64,000 bases of DNA from Bispira polyomma (lineage: Eukaryota). The notes beneath the pieces are model-generated. The model was not told the origin of the DNA. It did not search any database and worked only from the letters and a program-made list of their open reading frames with translations. The translations under genes and the position numbers were made by a program. Location: contig OZ287750.1 in NCBI GenBank assembly GCA_965649765.1, positions 98,332,001 through 98,396,000 on the forward strand. The letters run 5' to 3'. Shown here in pieces: positions 3,197 to 55,700 of the stretch (the first letter of the stretch is position 1; each line of letters opens with the position of its first letter).

Positions 3197-5020
3197 ATTT
3201 GAGCCTTGATGACTGAAAGATAGTTAGACACTGATGTGTGAGAGGTGTTATTGACTACTAGCACTTCTAAAAAGGCAAGCAATGAAATTGGAGTTATACT
3301 ATAGATGGATATATGAGCCAAACAACAGTAAGCTAGGAACATCCTAAACATGGAAGAGTAAGCTTTTTGAGTGGCTGGTCGGAATGCTTGATGAGCTCGA
3401 TTGGCCGCGCTGTCAGCTAGCCTGTTGACCCAGGTGAAAGAACCGGAAAAAGTTTCACATCTAGATAGCCCAATTTATCTCTAGCAGGTCCTCTTTGACC
3501 TGAAGCCATGTAGGCTTTTTTACTAATTTACTTAGTTTGTCGACATTATTGCGTGTAATCGCCCATCTTGATAGTAAATCCGCGGTAGTGTTTCTTTTGC
3601 CCAAAATATGGACTGTTCTCAATTCAATATCGGCCTTAGCTGCCTCCATGAAAATATTCCTAGTCATTGCGGACAAAGTGTGGTCATAGGTTTTATCGAG
3701 TTTAAAATTAACACGACTGCCTGGACTAGCAATTTTCTTCCAGACCAGTGATTTTTCCAGACTCTTAAGGCAACTAATATGTTTAACATTTCCAAATGGC
3801 AATGGTGTAATCATTATATCCCAAGGGTATTTGTTTAGTATAAATTTCATTGTTACAGCACGCGCCCAAACCTTGAAGGCAGGCATCTAAGTGTACTTCA
3901 TCAGTAACAGGTTTGTGATCAAAAAAAGCTACCCTGTTAAAGCTAGTGAGAAATGTCTCAAACCAATTCAAATCTGTTGAAAGGCTACATCTAATTTATT
4001 ATTGTTGGTATCTCTAGCCCCTCTTAGAGTATCTAGCATCCAGTTTAGATATGCTCTGGAGATTCTAACGCATTTTGACACATAGAGAAGAGAACCAAAC
4101 AGTGATTGGATTTGCCTTCTATTACAGACTTTTTTGTATTTCTAGCTTTGACATATTTGTCTCATTCCTCCAGTTTATTGTCTGGAATTGACACTGTAAA
4201 ATTCTCAGTATTAACTAGATACCTAAACACACCACTTTTGTACTATCGGCTACCACCTTCTCCTCGCTTATGGCAAAACCTAGTTTGTGAAAAATATCCT
4301 TTAATAGATCAAATGACTGAGATACTGTAGCTGGAAGCCCGTAACCTATGATGTCATCAATGTAGTTGATTACATCATGACCATGTGACGTCATAATAAA
4401 TCTTATAGCGTCACTGAGCCGTTAAAAGAAGGCGCTTCCGTGGCGATACCCAAATGGTAGGCAAGTATCTATAAAGAAATTATCTAATTACAAACCTAAT
4501 AAATCATAGTCACCAGGATCAATTTTAACGTGTCTAAATGCACTACTAATGTCTAATTTATATAGAAGTGCACCTTTTCCTAGTTTAATCAAATTTTTGG
4601 TAATATGGTCCATTGTGGGAAGAGTTAGAATGAAGGGAGTACCAAGTATTGTTCTTTCTGCATTGCTGGATTTACAGCATGACCTTCAGGATAGCTTAAA
4701 TCTATGATGACTCGCCTATGTTTTGCCTTTGGCTTTGGACGTGTCATAAAAGGGTAGATGTGAAGTTCGGATAATGGAGGGTCCCTGAAGGGACCTATTA
4801 TTTCACCAAAGTTTTTCTTCTCATTAAGGTAGGCCTTAACATCATCTTTATACTGAATAGCCGAGCTGTGATTTTCCCCTTTGTTTTCTAGGGGGCAAGT
4901 CTTGTCAAAATCTAGCAGAAAACCGAATTTGATCAGATGAAAAAATTGGCGATCCCAGTAATGTTTAAGCAGTTGTTTCCATGCTGCGATATTCAGTTGC
5001 GACTTTACAGGTATTTGAGC
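3197..5020 (-). mobile_element. Internal fragment of an Ngaro-like YR retrotransposon (copy 1): RT, RNase H and the start of YR
   Basis: ORFs 4625-5059 (NHSSA, PFMTRPK..RRVIIDLSYP), 3783-3971 (LDACLQGLG) and 3461-3886 (ADLLSRW). YIDD-encoding sequence at ~4350-4362. YR start AFRPATQKAY..SVSNYLSVIKA. Collinear with the 45-50 kb element. Confidence 0.85.
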
Positions 5021-42870: not shown

Positions 42871-44279
42871 GAATCAACAACATTGGTTGTTCCACTAAAT
42901 ACACAATTAACATGCTACCAACATCCAGAAATGTTATTCATCACCCCTCCCCCCCCCAAAAAAAAAAAAAACAACAACATATTGTTGAAGTGAATTTATC
43001 AAGCTTTATAAGACAGACTGCTAAAACTTGAAATTTTATACTTTGAAATCCATCAAGGCTTTAATTGATTTTAATTTGTACATTATTCATTTTATATGAT
43101 TATTCTCAAGTAAATATGGACACAACAGTAATGTGTGAAATATTTGGTAAATTTTAAAATAAATAAAACTAGTTTATAGTTGGGTTTTTACATTAATTGG
43201 TTATGCCTAATATTTTTAATTATCAATAAATAGTAGCCTTAGCAACGGAGTCCAATACAACTCGCATTTTAAACTTCAAACGTCAATGTTCCAAAACCAC
43301 TTGAACCGTGATATTTTACAAGCCTTTTATATACAATCAAGAAGCCATATTCTTAAACCAGACTGCCAACTTCACACAATTGTCACAATTGAAAGGTAAT
43401 AGTAGACTTTCTCAGTGCCTCATTATTAATCAGATGTAGAATACTGAAAGCTACTGTTATGCAGAAATTATTTTCTCTGTTTTTTTCAGTCACTTCTGCT
43501 CTGATAAGTCATTACTAATATAAATGTGCATGTGTTTGATACTGAACTGAAAAAAGTAATTAAAGTGGCATATAAGCCACATAGGGGTTATTTAATAATT
43601 ATATTAAAGTAATAATATTTGTTATTTTTAAGTAGTTAATGCGGCATATAAACCTACTACAGGGGTATTTCATATTGAAGTATCTGTATTTGTTATTTTG
43701 ATGTTACGTGGTATCTAAGTGCAATAGATTACTATTTAATATTTAAATCGAAGTAGATATATTTGTTATTTTAAAGTGATTCAAATGACGTATAATCCTG
43801 ATAGAGGCCCGGGTATTCTTTTGAATTTTTTTAAAATTGGTTACATATTGTAGTGTCATTAAAGACCCATGTCACTATAATATATAAATAAATAAAAGTT
43901 GTAGCTGCATCGTGCTTGTTTTGTTTGTTTATCTCTCTGCTTGTTTATAGGTTGGTGGTTCACACATTAGTTGCTGTGGTAGGGTGGTATTCTTTACCAA
44001 GGCCTAATTCTACACTAATAATCCAATCAAAGAATGTTGTAGCTGTTTCATTCTGTGTCACATGTGTCTTAAGGTTTAGGCCTTAAAGTAAATATTTTCT
44101 GGATAGGAAACTGTTTAAATTTTGATGAGCTCAGCTGTGTTAGCAACCAATTTGCCACTGGTGCAAATTGCCATATGAATAATACAAGTGTTCTCTGTCA
44201 GATTCTCACTTTAGAGAAAAGAATTTGCTGATATGGTGTATGCTGTAGTGGTCATCTTGTAAGATACTTTATTAATAGC

Positions 44280-44510
44280 TCCAAGTCGAGTAATGTATAA
44301 GACATATTTGCTTGTTTAGGATCCAATTTTGTATGAGACATAGGTGCTTCTCTAGGATCCATTTTATTGTAAGACATAGACACTTTCTCAGGAACCAATA
44401 GGTTATAAGACATATGTGCTTCTTTAGGATCCAATTTATTATAAGACATAGGTGCTTCTTTAGGATCCAATTTATTATAAGACATAGGTGCTTCTTCAGG
44501 ATCCAATTTG
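44280..44510 (-). repeat. 36-bp minisatellite, ~6.5 copies
   Basis: Unit TTGGATCCTAAAGAAGCACCTATGTCTTATAATAAA; translates open as (LDPKEAPMSYNK)n. Confidence 0.85.
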
Positions 44511-45040
44511 TTAGAAATATTGTTCAGAAAAAAAATGGTATCATTGTCACCTGAAATATTAGTACATGTAACTTTCTTAATGTCACTTTTTATATCTATA
44601 TTTTTTTTAGGTGCCTTGTTTGGATAATAAAAAGGTGGAGTGGCATTTGATCTCAGTGCCTCCCCAAAGTGTGGATTTATGAATTAATATATAAATAAAA
44701 CACCATTCTTTGGGCATATTAGTTTAATTCACTAAAGTTAGATCTACAGATTATGTACAAATTGTAATATCATTAACTAAAAGATTAAGTCCACCTTAAA
44801 TTAATGTTGAAGTTAAGAGCATGAGTTTAAGTCCATGCCTGAGTTTAAGATGTTGACTTAACTTCATTTAAGATTACATTAAATTTAAGTTACGTATAGT
44901 TACTAATCTTATTACTTCATTTAAGATTACATTACAGTTTAAGTTACATAAAGTTAAGGTGGCCTTAAGTATTGACTAATATATAGTGTATATAAATGCC
45001 ATTTGAGTTTATTGTCTGAACTAAAAACACCAAACCCCAA

Positions 45041-46026
45041 CTAGTAGGTAGAAGAGGAAGGTTGATGTAGTGAATTTTGAAAGGCCAACGCCACCTGGTC
45101 AGAGGAGTCATGGTCTTGTGTAATGTAGCGCCAGACGCATTCTGAGGTCCAAGTGCCATGACGTTGAATATTTTGAATGGAAACATTGTTGTTAAAGGCC
45201 CACATGGCTCCAGAACGTCTAAAAGAATGAAAAGTGATGTTAGAATTTTGCAAAACAAGATCTTTAAGAATGATAGCGAAGTTAAGCCTGACTTTAGTGT
45301 CAGTCATAGGGAGCCACGTGGCCAAGCTTTTACATTGAAACAGAGGCGAGTTTTTTTGACCAGGAGCGATGGCAAGCATATTGGAAATGGCAGCCACTGG
45401 ACACAGTGGGGAACCCCCAAGTGAGGGTATTTTTAAAAGTCTAAGTGTATCCCTGCTCTGTAATGTCTTACTCCATTTAATCAATACTTGAAGACCAGGA
45501 GGTGCAAATATGGCTAGGTGTTGTAGGGGTGAGTAAGTCGAGTTAGAGTGGGGAACCAAATTTGATATTCTCAAGAATGAGAAAAATGCAAAGAGGTAGA
45601 TGGCCTTGTAGACCTGACCCATGTACATAAAGTCACATTTTTTGATGATTTGGATCAGCAGAGGAATGTCAATGATGGATTTAAGTTGTACTTTAAAGGG
45701 TTTATGCAATGCAATTGCCTTTTGGAAATACTTTATTCTAGGGTCCATGAAGGCTGAGGTGTCAAGGCCATATAGGGCCAACCTTGCCTTGATTGCAGCC
45801 AAGTAATTTGCTATACCAGAGTGAGAGGTGTTGTTTTCAGCCAAAACCTCGAGGAAAGCTAAGAGAATAGTAGCCGTGATTGGTTGTATTGCAATATTTG
45901 CAAACACACAGTAAGCTAGGAAGTTTCTGAACATAAATTTATAAGATTTTTGAGTGGAGGGTCTGAAGGCTGTATGAGCCCTTCCAGCTGCTCTGCCAGC
46001 TGCCTTTGCCAGCCAGGAGTTTGTAC
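45041..46026 (-). CDS. Tyrosine recombinase (predicted spliced exon; ORF has no N-terminal ATG)
   Basis: Catalytic set FLRISNL, WSKT, HSFRRSGA, HGTW, VWRYI. Preceded by TTCTTTAG|GT. Has a small deletion (QHLA--IF) relative to copy 3. Confidence 0.85.
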
Positions 46027-47924
46027 CTAAAGAATACAATCAAATATTCCAGTCAAGATGGGTGGCTTCCACCCCTACAGGTAACCATATTGGTTCTACT
46101 ATAAATTTCCTTAATCTGTTTGAAGGTTCGCTGGTTATTGCCCATCTAGATAGCAAGTCTGCTACCTCATTATTTTTACCTAAGACATGTACTACTCGTA
46201 GGTCAATATCTGCCCTGACAGTTTCCATCTGGATGTTTCGAGCCATGGCTGCCAGAGTAAGATCCCTAGTTTTGCCATTGGTAAGTACCGAGACTACTGC
46301 CTGATTGTCGCACAATACCACAATTTTATTTCCTGCCCAATGGCAACCCCATAACCGGATAGCCACGAGAATATTGATCATCTCCAAGTGAACAATAGAG
46401 TAATTTTGAAAGCGTAGAGGAAGTTGAAGTGTGTACACCTGATTACCCCATCGCCCACCCAGACCTTGCAAGCATGCATCTAGCTCTATACCCATTTTGG
46501 GGATTCTATGGTCGAAGAAAGCAACACCATTGAATTGTGAAATGAATTTACTGAACCATGCAAGGTCTTGTTTCAATTCAGTTGTTAATTGTATGGACCT
46601 GTCATCATGTGCCGAGCGAAGTACATCAAGCATTCTGTTTAGAAAAAAGCGTGAAACTTTAACACACTTGGATACATATAATAGGCTGCCTAGTAACGAT
46701 TAGAGATCTCGTTTTGAACAGTGTGTTTTTTTATGCCACTTTAGGCATACATTCTCGACATCATTGAGTTTTTCCGGTGGAATTGAGACAGTGAAATTTT
46801 CTGTGTTTATTAGTACACCCAGACATGTAACACTAGTAGCTGGGCTAATGAGTTTTTTCTGGCTAATTGCAAAACCCAAATCTACTAAAAGTTTATGGAG
46901 CATTTTAAAAGACTTTTCTGCCGTACTGGGCATACCGTACCCTATGACATCATCAATGTAATTCGTGACTTTAAAGCCCTTTTTAGACATAATGAAGCGG
47001 ACAGCGTCACTTAGGCATTGGAATATTGCACTTCCGTGCCTGAACCCAAAGGGCAGGCACGTGTCCACATAATAGTGGTCGAGTTTTTAACCTAAAAGGT
47101 CATAGTCTTTAGGATCCATTTTGACGTGCCGGAATGCCCGGCTGACATCAATTTTGTACAAAAGGGAGCCTTTGCCTAAGCATCTAACTTTATTTGTGAC
47201 ATCATCTATAGTAGGTAAGCATGAAGGGGGTGCCTAGGTAGCTATTTCTTAGAACCCCTGCATTGACAGATTCACCTAAAGGAAAGCTGAGATCAATTAT
47301 GACTCTTCTATGTGCACCCCCAGGCTTCTCCCTGGTCATGAAGGGTGATATATGTAAGTTTTTTATTGGAGGTTTCTTAAATGGACCTAGTATAGCTTTG
47401 AACTGCTTTTCTTCTTCTAAATATGCTTCAACATCTTTAGTGTAAAATTTTGCAGAATTGTGATTTGTATCCTTATGAGATAGCATATTTGATCTATCAA
47501 AGTCAACTGGAAAGCCATAGCGTATTAGGAAGGGGAGTTGTTTATCCCAATAGTCACCTAACAATTCTGCCCATTTGTCTGGTTTTAATGCAGATTCTAT
47601 TTGTATCTGAGAGCCACAAAAGTTATGCTGTTTATCAGCTGTTATGATCGCATGCAGTTTGCACATAGATGCACTACTTTTATTTTTCCTGTCTCGTGTT
47701 GGTAGTTTTAAATCCCCTAGGGGAACAAACCCAAATTTGTCAGTGCTTTGGTCATACCATTCCCTGAAGGTGGCATTATCTACTGCTGTACGCATAAGAT
47801 CCTTGTGCTTTGGCTTCACCTGTAATTGAAACTCATATTTATCCTCAGTGTTTATATTACTGTTGCTATCCCCTTTTAAGTTAAGTTCATCCCGTCCCAT
47901 GAGTTTAACTTTGGTTTTAGCAGT

Positions 47925-48380
47925 GTAAATAACCTGATTTTTTGAGTCATCCATTTGTTTTGTATTAGTCATGTTATGACCCCTATGGGGTTCCGCAGTG
48001 GGATCATTTACTATTTCCCCTTGGTTACCTATCATTATGGTTTCTTCATATTGAAATTGTTCTAGGGGGGGAAACCTGTTGTGTTGGTTCTTGAGTTACC
48101 CGTTTGTTTTGTATTAGTCATGTTGTGACCCTTATGGGGTTCCGCAGTGGGATCATCTAATGTTTCCCCTTGGTTACCCATCACTATGGTTTCTTTACAC
48201 TGAAATTGTTCTTGGGGCACAAACCTGTTATGTTGGTTCTTTGAGTTATCTGTTCGTTTTGGATTAGTCATGTTGTGACCCTTATGGGGTTCCACAGTGG
48301 GATAATTTACTATTTCCCCTTGGTTACCCATCACTATGGTTTCTTCACACTGAAATTGTTCTAGGGGGAAAAACCTGTTG
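47925..48380 (-). repeat. Three-copy 150-bp (50-aa) tandem repeat in the pol N-terminal linker
   Basis: AAACCTGTT anchors at 48371, 48221 and 48072; unit HNRFFPLEQFQCEETIVMGNQGE..SKNQ. Confidence 0.9.
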
Positions 48381-48903
48381 TGTGTGCCACTTAAAGTATC
48401 ATTATTAATTTGTTCACCCCGAGCTGAGTGTTTTTTGACACCACCTTTCTGGGGAGGGGGGGAAATAACCACCTTATTGTTGCCTTTTACCCATTTGGGA
48501 ACAATTGGGCCAGCATTCACCCTTGTTGGTGGGTGACATTTCCTGACATTCCCTGTAAACATACATTGGTTAGTGTTTTTATACAATTTCTGTTTTACAT
48601 TTCCTGTAAACATGCATTTGTTAGTGTTTTCGGACCATTTGCTTTTTACATGAACATTATTTGACATTTCGTGAAAGCACGAGCTGATTTTGGGGACTGT
48701 TTCCACTTTTTCGTTTTTGTTACTGATTTCCTTTTTATTCCCTTCCTGTACCACTTGTGCATAAGATATTTGATTTACTTTCTTCCAGTCGTGTCTCCAA
48801 TTCATGCTCGCCCTTTCACACATTTCACTATTTACACATATTCTAGTACTAAATTTCTTTACCTCCAACACTTCATCATATTTGATTTTTTCTGATCTTT
48901 TGT

Positions 48904-48937
48904 GCACTGCCCCTTGGCAGTGCCCTAATCGTTTTTT
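48904..48937 (-). promoter_or_regulatory. -1 programmed ribosomal frameshift signal (gag to pol)
   Basis: A AAA AAC (48937-48931) in the gag frame, 7-nt spacer, hairpin GCACTGCC-AAGG-GGCAGTGC. The -1 frame is that of ORF 48062-48907. Confidence 0.8.
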
Positions 48938-49920
48938 GAATTTGAGTTTTGGTTTGAAGTTTTCTTACAGTTTTTTGCCGGATGTTTGTGCTGTTTGCCA
49001 TAACCAGCACATGTCGCACACACATCAGAATACAATTGACCCCCTGATTCATGGTCTGACTTGTGAGAGCATGAACCTTTTTGATAAAATCTACACGGGA
49101 TTGCCGTAGTTTTGTCTCTGCCAAATTTTTTAATTGAACTACCCCCCACAATTTGATAAGATACCTTTTGGGCATGTGCCCTTCTTATTCTTTCAATTTG
49201 GTTTGTGTCGCCCCATGTTACTTTGCCATCTTCCATTCTACACAAGAGGACAGCATGAGCTCCCTTGGCAGCAGCCCAAGAGAAGCCATGGCTGTCCTCC
49301 ATTATATCATTCAGGTAATCTAACATGTGATTTTTGATAGCCACATCAGATTCTTCGCGTATTATAATGCTAAATCCAGCTATCCACTGTGCCATTGAAA
49401 ACTGATCATAACTGACCCTACCTTTGTTGCTTCCCCCCAACACATAACTTTGAGGCCATGGAACCTGTCTCTTAACATAAACAGTTTCTGACCCCCCTCT
49501 TTGGGATTTGAACCTACCCGACTCGTTTAGCAGGGCCAGCTCCTTTAGTCTGTCATCTACCTGGTACTGGACTGTTTGTGAGCGTCTCAATACTGTCAGG
49601 GAAGGGATCACCAGGTCGTCCTCCGCAGTCGACTTTGATGTGGAAGCGGGTTTAGTAGTATCATACTGAGAGGCCGAAGCCCCTAACGTGTCACCATAGT
49701 TCACTTTTTGCTCTATTTTTGACATGTGTCCTCCCAATTCCTTCAATTCTTCTAAGATTTTCATATTCACTGATTTCACTGACGAGTGTTCACTTTCACT
49801 ATAAGAATTATTCATTTCATCCCTGGAATTGTCTAGAACATTGTGTACAAATTGACAGTTTTTCCCCACTGGTCTCTTGTGGTTTCCGGCACACTTAGAA
49901 CATTTATATGTTTTAGGCAC
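48925..49920 (-). CDS. Gag-like ORF1 (N-terminal CxxC..H..C finger, C-terminal Cys/His finger)
   Basis: 331-codon open frame starting GTG; copy 3 has ATG at the equivalent site. CSKC..H..C at the N-terminus; CRFYQKGSC..H..CATC..H..C at the C-terminus. Confidence 0.8.
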   Translation of the reverse strand: MPKTYKCSKCAGNHKRPVGKNCQFVHNVLDNSRDEMNNSYSESEHSSVKSVNMKILEELKELGGHMSKIEQKVNYGDTLGASASQYDTTKPASTSKSTAEDDLVIPSLTVLRRSQTVQYQVDDRLKELALLNESGRFKSQRGGSETVYVKRQVPWPQSYVLGGSNKGRVSYDQFSMAQWIAGFSIIIREESDVAIKNHMLDYLNDIMEDSHGFSWAAAKGAHAVLLCRMEDGKVTWGDTNQIERIRRAHAQKVSYQIVGGSSIKKFGRDKTTAIPCRFYQKGSCSHKSDHESGGQLYSDVCATCAGYGKQHKHPAKNCKKTSNQNSNSKND

Positions 49921-50549
49921 AGCGATTTATTACTTCTGTATTGTTTGTATAGTCTACTGAAAATAGAATAACCCGGTTTTGATACATGCACGCACGCTAG
50001 AGGTTTTCTATATATTATTTTGACTGGTTGTAAAATTTGATGTATAAAGGTATAGGTGTATAAATTAGATATATGTAAAATCATAAAACAAAAAAAATAA
50101 GAAGATAAAAGCACTTTCCTCTAACAAAGCTCTATGAGCAGTATGAGCATGACTCAAAACATTGAGTATTTTTTAAGTCTCCTTAAGTACAGGAACCAGC
50201 ACACCAGTCACCTCAAGATGATCCACGTTTACACTAAAATATCCAGTAAATGTAACTGACTCTAACATATGAAGACAGTCCAACACTGTAAATTCCTATT
50301 ATAAAACTTTTATATTTAAAAATGGCGTCTTGCCTTCTTGGTAAACAAATTTATAATGAGGATTATGTGAAAAGAGCGGGAATAGCTGGGGTTATGACCC
50401 CAGTGTAGCCAATTAGAGACTGAATAAGAATAGTTTTAGCAATATTTTGGCAGCACTGACCCTGCTGAGTCCCAGGCCTCACCATACACCCTGGGGACCA
50501 CCTATTTGGATTTTTTAAAAATTCTAAAAAGCCACAAACACTGTATAAC

Positions 50550-52789: not shown

Positions 52790-55700
52790 GAGGCTGTTGT
52801 AACGAGACCTTTTGGGCATAATGTTAATTCATAATGGTCCACAACGCAAACAAGTATTTATGCTTATTTGAAAGTATCTATTTATGTGCTGCTTGTCAGC
52901 TGTAGATACATTTCTGGAGCCTATTAATGTTTTTTATGATTTTTCATCCAAAGAAATACCTTTCACCAAGTTCCCTAAAATAATTATTATTGCAGTAATT
53001 AATATCAGTGCACAAAGATCACTAGAAATTTTAAGAAAGGTCGTTCTGCAGTACTCTCCTAAAACAATCAGCGACCTGGGATCCAGCCTGGGCCGAATCT
53101 GTGATGTAACGCCACACACACTCCGAGATCTAGGTTCCCTGCCTCTGAATATCCTGTAATTTGACATTATTGTTGAAGGCGAATGAGGCCCCCGAACAGC
53201 AAAACGAGTGAAAAGTAAAGCCAGACGACTGAGCACCTACCATTTTAAAGACTTGCTGTCTGCGAACTCTTGTATCAGTGAGAGGAACCCACAAACTAGC
53301 CAACTTAAATTGAAACAAAGGAAGGCGGATGATACTCAATAAATTTTTCAAAGCCCTGACATGACATAAACTAGACTCAGGTATGCTGGGAACCGAAATT
53401 AACTTAACAGCATCATTGGTTTGCATTGTCTTAGACCATTTTATCATTAAAACAACATAGCCTGGCTTGAAAATGACATCAGTCCTAGCAAGTTGTTTCA
53501 GGGGTGAAAAGTGAAAAGTGGCTACTGAATGGGGGCACAAGTTGGAAAGCCTCAAAAAGGTGAAAAAACTAACCAAGTAGACTGCTTTGAAAACCTGCCC
53601 CATATAAGTAACTTTATATTTACCCACAATCTTCTTAAGCAGAGGGAGATCAAACAAGGACTTCAGTTTTACCTGCAGAGGCTTATACATTACCAGCGCT
53701 CTAGTAAAGTACGTAATTTTTTTATCCTAAAACGCTTCCACATTTAAGTTAAACACCACACACTTTGCCTTTATAGCAGACAATTGATTGGCAATTTGAG
53801 AGGCTGACATGCTATTATGACATAGAAATTCAAGGAAAGCCAAAAGCTGGAACATATTCACCTGATATAAGGGCCAGTTGAGGAAGGCCCTAAAAGCCAG
53901 AAACAATCTGAAGGCTCTATCATATTCTTTCCCAGTGGCAGGGGTGAATGCAGTATGCAACCTCTCACAAGCCTTTCTAGCCAGCATAGACTCAATAGAG
54001 TGTACACCTGAAATAACACTATGACTTGCTATATAAGCGGATTAATATCAAGTAAAGAGTTATGAGTAGGAAGCCAGGTGCCAGGCCCGACTAATTCATA
54101 CAATAATATATGGTTCACCTCAGTCTCCACCTATCTGGACAGCAAGTCGAATTTGCTAGCCTACATATAAATATTTCTAGTGTAAGCAGCCAAGGTGGGA
54201 TCTCTGGTATGTCCAGTCTGTAACACACCTACCACAGTTTGATTATCACACTTGACCAACACACGTTGGCCCTGCCAAGCTTGAGCCCAGAGCTTGATCG
54301 CTACAAGTATATTTAACATTTCAAGATAAGCAATGTTCATTTGTGTCATATTCATGGGTATTTTAATCTGATACACTTAATTATAATAAATGCCTCCCAT
54401 TCCTGTAAGGCAAGCATCCAGTTCAATTTGTGCATTATCCACTTTAATGGCTTTATGCCAGAAAAAGGACACACCATTAAAATGCTCTACAAAGGTTCGA
54501 AACCAATTCAAATCTTGTTTGAAGTCTTCTGTAAATTTTATGCGCTTTCTGGTATGATTGTTTTTTTAATAGATCAAGCATCCTGTTAAGGAAAACTAGC
54601 ATATTTAATGCATTTTGCGACATACAGCAAAAGCTCCATTAAGGACTGCAGTTCATGTTCTGAACTGCAAGCATTACACCTATCCTGGATTTCCCTTAAT
54701 TTCTCACTGGGAATAGACATCGTCCATTTAACAGTGTCTATCAAAATTCCAAGACAAGTAACCACTGTAGTCGGTGCTAGTGATATTTACTGGCTCACTG
54801 TTAAACCAAGTTCAGCAAGCACTTGCTGCAATCTTACAAAGGTCTTGTTAATTTTGCTAGGTAAAGAGACCGCCAAAAAAATGTCTATGTAGTTGAGCAC
54901 TACATGACCTTCAAATTTCATAACGTAAACGGCACCAGAAAGACGCTAAAAAATCATCAAGCCATTTTGATAAGTGAATGGCAAAGATTTGTCAGTATAA
55001 TAGAATTTTCAGTGTGAACTAAGCAGATCTATGTCCCCCAGATCAACAGGTATGTGGTGGAACGCTGGATTGATGTCAACCTTGAATATTTGGCAACCTT
55101 TACTCAATTTCAGAACCTCACTGGTGAAGTTGTCAATACATGGATAGGATAACAAAAATTCTGTACCAAGATACGATGTGGGTGAAGCTGCTGCATTAAC
55201 AGAGAGCCCTTAAGGCCAACTTAAGTCCACAATAACGCACCTATTAGCCGAGTTTGGTTTATTTCTTGTTATTTAAGGTGAACCGTGTAGATAAGCAAAA
55301 GAGGAGTTTTCGAACGGGCCCAACATCGTCCTAAATTTACATTCCTCTTTTATATACACATCTACATCTCGGGGGTATTCCTCCGCTGAGGAGTGATTAT
55401 TACTATCAGACTGGGTAATATTAGAACGACAAAAATCAAGGGGCATTTGCCAGTCTCAATAATTTCTCAGATACTTTTCCCACTTTTCTGCATGTAACTG
55501 CGATTGTACTGGGATTTGCTAAGTTTGTCAATTTCCGTGCCTTCATCCTTAACTAGATTACCCAGATTCGAAAGGGGAGTAAACCCATAAGGAAAGTCCG
55601 TTTGAGTACACCACTGTTAATATGTGGGATCATTGGCCACTTTTAAAAGCAAGTTCTTTTTTATTTCTTTTTTGGTTTTAACTCCCAAGTGTATTTTTAA

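Follow-up and report, generated by a model that had tools for sequence, protein, structure and literature searches.

We found that a Ngaro-like tyrosine-recombinase (YR) retrotransposon of Bispira polyomma, lying on the minus strand from 50489 to 44654 of the 64,000-nucleotide stretch analysed (hereafter the window), carries at its gag-pol junction a cassette whose best explanation is, with high probability and judging from its sequence, programmed −1 ribosomal frameshifting to a Gag-Pol fusion. The earlier note had read this cassette as a retroviral-type −1 frameshift signal linking gag and pol, and the reading appears well supported by the phase of the slippery heptamer, its spacing from the downstream structure, the −1 position of pol, the replacement of the stem among relatives and the narrow gag-pol overlap in the elements L126-L128.

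The gag-like frame ends in TCA AAA AAC GAT TAG (S-K-N-D-stop) on the minus strand, as had been claimed, and direct reading places the slippery heptamer A AAA AAC (48931..48937, minus strand; S-K-N in the gag frame and kept in relatives) in the correct X XXY YYZ phase. It is followed by a 7-nt spacer, GATTAGG (48924..48930, minus strand), which includes the gag stop TAG (48927-48925), and by a predicted stimulatory hairpin, GCACTGCC-AAGG-GGCAGTGC (48904..48923, minus strand), with the arms GCACTGCC (48923-48916) and GGCAGTGC (48911-48904) enclosing the loop AAGG. The hairpin that had been described as a perfect 8-bp one, 7 nt past the heptamer, is so in the window copy, but its conservation covers only the outer seven of the eight pairs. 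The region 48840-48940 (minus strand) was predicted to fold at −20.6 kcal/mol with a z score of −3.44, none of 200 shuffled sequences being as stable. By a criterion chosen with the window cassette in view, a GC-rich perfect hairpin of at least 8 bp at 5-9 nt downstream was found for one of the 955 slippery-type heptamers that the window has on its two strands, namely the one in this cassette. An Rfam search of 48700-49100 returned no match at E up to 5, and three sequencing runs of unknown kind gave no difference in the cassette among the differences listed.

The −1 frame reads KKRLGHCQGAVHKRSEK into pol and stays open for 291 codons, in agreement with the claim of a −1 entry. The further statement that pol lacks a proximal ATG fails for the window copy, in which the first two −1-frame ATGs occur at codons 39 (48823-48821) and 45 past the heptamer; it stands insofar as no ATG is conserved across families. 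A conserved −1-frame motif, W-x-x-D-W (WRHDW, 48785..48799, minus strand), lies at codon 47 past the heptamer.

The window element and its relatives have the ORF order gag-like, RT/RNase H and YR on one strand. In the window, all on the minus strand, these are preceded by an A1 terminal repeat (50304..50489, 87% match to the A repeat of the sibling L097) and consist of the gag-like ORF1 (48925..49920), with an N-terminal C/H motif and a C-terminal CCCH plus a second zinc knuckle; pol (46040..48937), entered in the −1 frame and encoding RT and RNase H without a methyltransferase (intact pols of relatives have 840-878 aa); and the tyrosine recombinase ORF (45041..46039), with SAM-like and catalytic domains at Pfam scores below the cut-off. 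A B repeat (44654..45030) closes the copy, the second B and the A2 of complete siblings being missing here. The window copy stops exactly at the end of the B repeat, which fits the outcome of recombination between two B repeats.

The window copy is a dead relic that has retained the signal. Its pol is split into four reading-frame pieces (48964-48062, 48095-47202, 47086-46700 and 46699-46040), its gag begins with GTG where all eight siblings checked have ATG, and terminal repeats have been lost, so the frameshift claim concerns the family and not the activity of this copy. None of eight siblings, taken at length, has an intact pol. Three 150-nt tandem repeats lie at 47935-48383, in the variable N-terminal part of pol, and also occur in L093 and L097, both siblings; in other families this part contains different ones. 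Elsewhere in the window are a further, decayed tyrosine recombinase ORF of another family (53130-54041, minus strand), a decayed relative (3319-4801) with fragments 66-77% like the pol/RNase H of L097, and a 143-codon open frame across a 36-nt tandem repeat just past the B repeat of the element (44252-44683, minus strand).

Ngaro elements are defined, in PMC4157794 and PMC8547959, by gag, RT/RNase H and YR, by lack of a methyltransferase and by the split direct repeats A1-ORFs-B1-A2-B2. Such repeats were found in five of 13 self-compared elements (L097, L107, L115, L128 and L196). The five intact pols of relatives all gave RVT_1 above the cut-off and an RNase H domain and ended about 30 aa past RNase H; none of the five had a methyltransferase match in Pfam at E up to 1 or a Pfam protease domain. 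Pfam matches of the YR were weak (E 0.0025-0.005), and a PDB sequence search with an intact pol as query gave a single weak RT match. The elements thus have the structure by which Ngaro is defined, and the assignment is one by structure; classing YR elements by structure alone risks misassignment, as PMC4157794 points out. Relatives were sought in 1.04 Gb of sequence in 75 contigs, and all DNA evidence comes from this one genome. It carries a large, partly young radiation of Ngaro-like elements with at least five gag lineages, and the terminal repeats are 99-100% identical in L107, L115, L128 and L196.

Conservation of the heptamer was assessed at 150 loci from gag protein searches, with the gag stop placed without using the motif. 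After exclusion of eight loci with an abnormal stop position, the remaining 142 represented 100 distinct junctions from 22 families, and 97 of these junctions had an in-phase heptamer within the last four gag codons. In one of these, L078, the cassette has been lost and the heptamer is there by chance, giving a corrected count of 96/100, and the three junctions without a heptamer are premature stops. Four-codon windows in gag bodies, taken as the control, contained the heptamer in 21 of 1320 cases. All 20 family representatives read NNA AAA AAC, with about 0.06 expected per family from gag codon usage (A as third base, 443/1837; AAA, 260/390; AAC, 101/269); these representatives were drawn from heptamer-bearing copies, four having been exchanged for cleaner ones, and two of the 22 families, known from prematurely stopped copies only, are without one. 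Within a looser set of 30 loci, found with a more distant query, 16 had the heptamer in the last four codons; nine of the 14 misses belong to lineage D, with the heptamer seven codons before the stop, and five are damaged or truncated copies. A further set of 20 loci had it in phase in 17, the other three showing a lost stop, a shortened A run and a premature stop. A pattern for the stem type of the window matched 422 times in the genome and its reversed control 0 times, a count that is circular for conservation and usable for copy number only. The shuffles, the gag-body control, the scan of window heptamers and the reversed pattern together reject a chance origin of the cassette. Two checks proposed in advance, a conserved gag end and retention of the signal by relatives with intact pol, had a positive outcome: K-N is kept at the gag end, and heptamer and stem are both kept where pol is intact.

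The frame relation of gag and pol was determined at 80 loci of 9.2-9.5 kb, 19 of which have a frame of at least 780 aa with RT and RNase H. In 14 of these 19, representing six families, pol lies at −1 and the heptamer falls inside a gag-pol overlap of 16-139 nt. Sibling comparison identified the five exceptions as single-copy mutations: a substitution creating a −1-frame stop in L112, downstream deletions of 13 nt in L192 and 5 nt in L273, and, in L198 and L207, a single additional base 13-14 nt upstream of the heptamer, which fuses gag and pol into frames of 1239 and 1040 aa, respectively. The last two loci (G000:C12:38414900-38424100 and G000:C8:527400-536600) come from different families, and their extra base may be a real mutation or a homopolymer assembly error. 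In one family, that of the elements L126-L128, the −1 frame becomes open just one codon ahead of the heptamer and the gag stop comes one codon behind it, so that a change of frame is possible within 16 nt only. Stop-codon readthrough was ruled out, as pol lies at −1, not 0, and both the identity of the stop (TAA, TAG or TGA) and its place vary.

No start codon of pol is conserved. The first Met of intact copies is found anywhere from codon 19 to codon 116, and lineage A conserves, in its −1 frame, the motif W-x-x-D-W followed by K-x-Y-A. Ahead of W-x-x-D-W a Met is present in four of nine families, that of the window included, and absent in the other five, which indicates protein constraint on the pol frame upstream of any start codon.

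Pairing of the stem was analysed in 18 representatives, one for each of 18 families, that have the stem type of the window, two with other structures being excluded. Paired cells made up 91.3%, compared with 83.3 ± 1.7% after shuffling and 18-46% in slid controls. The pol-frame codons CAC, TGC and GCA across the arms are invariant in 18/18, and elsewhere in pol these codons account for 59/141, 24/93 and 50/196, respectively; this invariant codon choice, set against pol usage, rejects constraint on the protein sequence H-C-x-x-A-V as the sole cause. The spacer measured 7 nt in all 179 A- or B-type stem matches, counted without de-duplication and with a pattern that allowed 5-9 nt. Covariation, another of the proposed checks, is thin. 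Five of nine stem pairs never vary, and the stem is mostly invariant rather than covarying; in favour stands a G-C/C-G swap of the outer pair (10 versus 7) between two clades, which is one event on the gag tree. The eighth, inner pair speaks against it, being complementary in 17 of 29 distinct cores where shuffling gives 13.9, with 781 of 10000 shuffles as high, and since this is not significant, the conserved stem is taken as 7 bp.

Comparison across deeper divergence was more informative. A tree built from the C-terminal regions of 30 gags (identity 34-95%, with a median of 45%; L167 excluded for stops) contains five gag lineages that all retain A AAA AAC, with different downstream structures starting 6-9 nt past the heptamer and a gag stop 0, 1, 6 or 7 codons past it. 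Lineages A and B have the stems GCACTGC/GCAGTGC and CCACTGC/GCAGTGG, respectively; lineage D has GCCAGCA/TGCTGG with the stop within the loop; lineage E has bulged GCTGC/GCAGC stems; and lineage C has two interleaved arm pairs that read, by eye and in one family, as a pseudoknot. In the L162 family, for example at L162:1412-1504(-) (G000:C4, near 73259700), the arms CGGGGT/ACCCCG and CTAGTCAT/ATGACTAG interleave 8 nt past the heptamer. These arms, present in about a dozen copies of the one family, suggest an H-type pseudoknot that would have replaced the hairpin. Replacement of the stem at constant distance is better evidence than the covariation within it and, together with the late opening of the −1 frame in L126-L128, gives the frameshift reading its strongest support. 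Because synonymous positions are fixed against codon usage and the stem is replaced at constant distance, the signal is under selection beyond protein coding; like its anatomy and frame relation, this is shown by the sequences.

Gag homologues from other assemblies, no more than 74% like any locus from this genome (257 of 268 compared), extend the picture. A KN or KNx end is found in 69 of 85 near homologues and in 31 of 67 more distant ones, i.e. fewer than half. In several homologues the protein extends beyond the usual stop with G-T-A-x-x-Q-C, a tail consistent with what the same hairpin would encode in the zero frame. Searches of metagenome and viral contigs found no DNA of relatives from other organisms, so the cross-species evidence is protein-only.

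On the tandem-slippage model, the hairpin would pause the ribosome with tRNA-Lys on AAA in the P site and tRNA-Asn on AAC in the A site, and both tRNAs would re-pair one base back (AAA, AAA). After the slip, a minority of ribosomes would continue K-N/K-R-L-G-H-C and produce a Gag-RT/RNase H fusion from unspliced RNA, and the remainder would stop one codon later to give Gag ending in KND. From the arrangement we infer the pausing, the slippage, its efficiency and the fate of the fusion. Against frameshifting count the short (7-8 bp) and mostly invariant stem, the phase of the CAG in its 3' arm (see below), the AUG ahead of the conserved motif in four of nine families, the minority of KN/KNx ends among distant homologues and the origin of all DNA evidence in one genome.

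The third ORF would be reached by a different route. A phase-1 splice donor, G/GT(A), is predicted from codon constraint in a conserved gag Gly codon (49516..49518, minus strand), and a phase-1 acceptor, consisting of a U-rich tract and TAG, is predicted just past the pol stop and before YR (46027..46039, minus strand). All 16 representatives with the motif K-S-x-R-G (of 20) have GGT, followed by A, as the Gly codon that precedes it, and the donor pattern occurs in only 5/20 further, more distant loci. Of 14 elements, 11 have the first YAG past the pol stop in phase 1 to YR, and the YR frame relative to pol is 0, +1 and +2 in 6, 3 and 5 of the 14, respectively. A YR frame that varies while the acceptor phase is constant is as expected for splicing, and not for a fixed −1 frameshift into YR. 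Such a frameshift, from RT/RH into YR, was proposed for Ngaro by Poulter and Butler 2015, as quoted in PMC13003380, and in fungal Ngaro the YR is described in PMC3783388 as either in frame or shifted; the present frame data argue that the published guess is misplaced in this lineage. For the YR, splicing may put the first ~135 gag codons in front of its ORF and take out pol along with the frameshift signal, which is a weaker inference than frameshifting into pol. Processed copies were absent among 40 scored matches of the window family and, by donor-side patterns, in two other families, an absence that is uninformative, and a joint at the predicted intron was absent from the three sequencing runs of unknown kind, which is likewise uninformative on expression. 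The earlier proposal that one transcript yields Gag, Gag-Pol and Gag(N)-YR is supported for Gag-Pol, through frameshifting, and qualified for Gag(N)-YR, which would come from a second, spliced mRNA with support from sequence only.

The same donor offers another way into pol, in that an alternatively spliced mRNA could join it to the CAG in the 3' arm of the hairpin, the conserved block being a splice signal. The donor-like site in gag is conserved, and the 3'-arm CAG is in phase 1 to pol, matching the donor, in 11/14 elements. However, the 15 nt before this CAG are 33-60% pyrimidine and coincide with the paired stem, compared with 47-73% for the predicted YR acceptor, and by hand count the CAG is missing in lineages C and D and in phase 2 in lineage E. 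Splicing into pol would also leave the invariant heptamer, the fixed spacing and the complementarity of the arms unexplained, and we consider it very improbable. Slightly less credible still is translation of pol from its own start, by leaky scanning, by reinitiation past the gag stop with the block as an aid, or from an internal promoter. The gag stop directly before the stem would suit reinitiation, and in the four families with a Met ahead of the conserved motif an AUG occurs 36-50 codons past the heptamer. These points are countered by the shifting position of the first Met in intact copies, by its place behind the motif in the other five families and by the stop, which moves by up to seven codons while the distance from heptamer to stem is constant.

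The near-invariance of the arms across lineages A and B, around a 6-nt core that is free to vary (29 distinct cores), exceeds what pairing needs, and would be expected if the inverted repeat were a protein-binding element, with frameshifting absent or secondary. The Gag zinc fingers might bind it as a packaging hairpin in the RNA, or the recombinase as a DNA site with 7-bp arms and a 6-bp core. The arms are, however, wholly replaced in three other lineages, and a binding element would leave pol without any other route to translation, which makes this the least probable of the readings considered; protein binding may exist alongside frameshifting as a further function of the repeat. The reading we adopt is programmed −1 frameshifting to Gag-Pol.

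Signals composed of A AAA AAC and a stem-loop operate at −1 in deltaretrovirus gag-pro and astrovirus ORF1a/1b. The window cassette resembles them in heptamer class, 7-nt spacer, GC-rich 3' structure and the arrangement of a structural gene upstream and a polymerase downstream at −1, and differs from them in belonging to a YR retrotransposon and in having the gag stop inside the spacer. The env gene of retroviruses is reached by splicing, and the YR here may be likened to it. With animal LTR retrotransposons the element would share the −1 gag-pol frameshift; those elements encode a DDE-integrase within one pol, whereas the Ngaro-like element has a separate third ORF for its integrating enzyme, with splicing as the predicted way to it. 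With described Ngaro elements it shares the order gag, RT/RNase H and YR, the lack of a methyltransferase and, in complete relatives, the split repeats. As no protease domain was found in the five intact pols of relatives and YR elements lack one according to PMC3783388, the Gag-Pol fusion would not be self-cleaved.

According to PMC5009743, A_AAA_AAC ranks with the heptamers on which mammalian ribosomes shift most readily, and pol is at −1 in 28 of 51 surveyed animal LTR retroelements, many with classical heptamers. The terms 'DIRS', 'Ngaro' and 'tyrosine recombinase' are absent from the first 300,000 of the 449,034 characters of that source. The available parts of PMC3266345, PMC6681497, PMC9210276, PMC7192593, PMC4157794 and bioRxiv 10.1101/2021.01.25.428050 give ORF overlaps or none, and no slippery site. 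No description of a slippery site or stimulator for Ngaro or the DIRS order was found in the literature searched; the primary Ngaro papers, the 2015 review and Repbase may mention a gag-pol frameshift.

The type of signal is textbook, and its host order of retroelements is one for which none was found described in the literature searched. We regard it as rather likely that animal Ngaro-like elements follow a full retroviral plan without a protease, in which Gag, an uncleaved Gag-RT/RNase H made through the invariant A AAA AAC, and an env-like spliced Gag(N)-YR would be produced. If this is true, the YR is fused to the N-terminal zinc-binding and coiled-coil part of Gag, which would bring the recombinase into the particle, and splicing replaces the published guess of YR expression by frameshifting. 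The family would then also be a natural series of interchangeable stimulators, comprising two hairpin types, bulged stems and a predicted pseudoknot, acting on one slippery site. On the translation of the second and third ORFs of YR retrotransposons, the literature searched offers guesses or no answer, and the cassette supplies for gag-pol an exact site, its phase and a predicted junction peptide. In annotation, a Gag fusion is the appropriate model for Pol, and not a frame taken from its first Met. On this reading −1 frameshifting would be extended to another order of retroelements, and the hundreds of copies in the genome, with 422 matches for one stem type, would allow stimulators to be compared.
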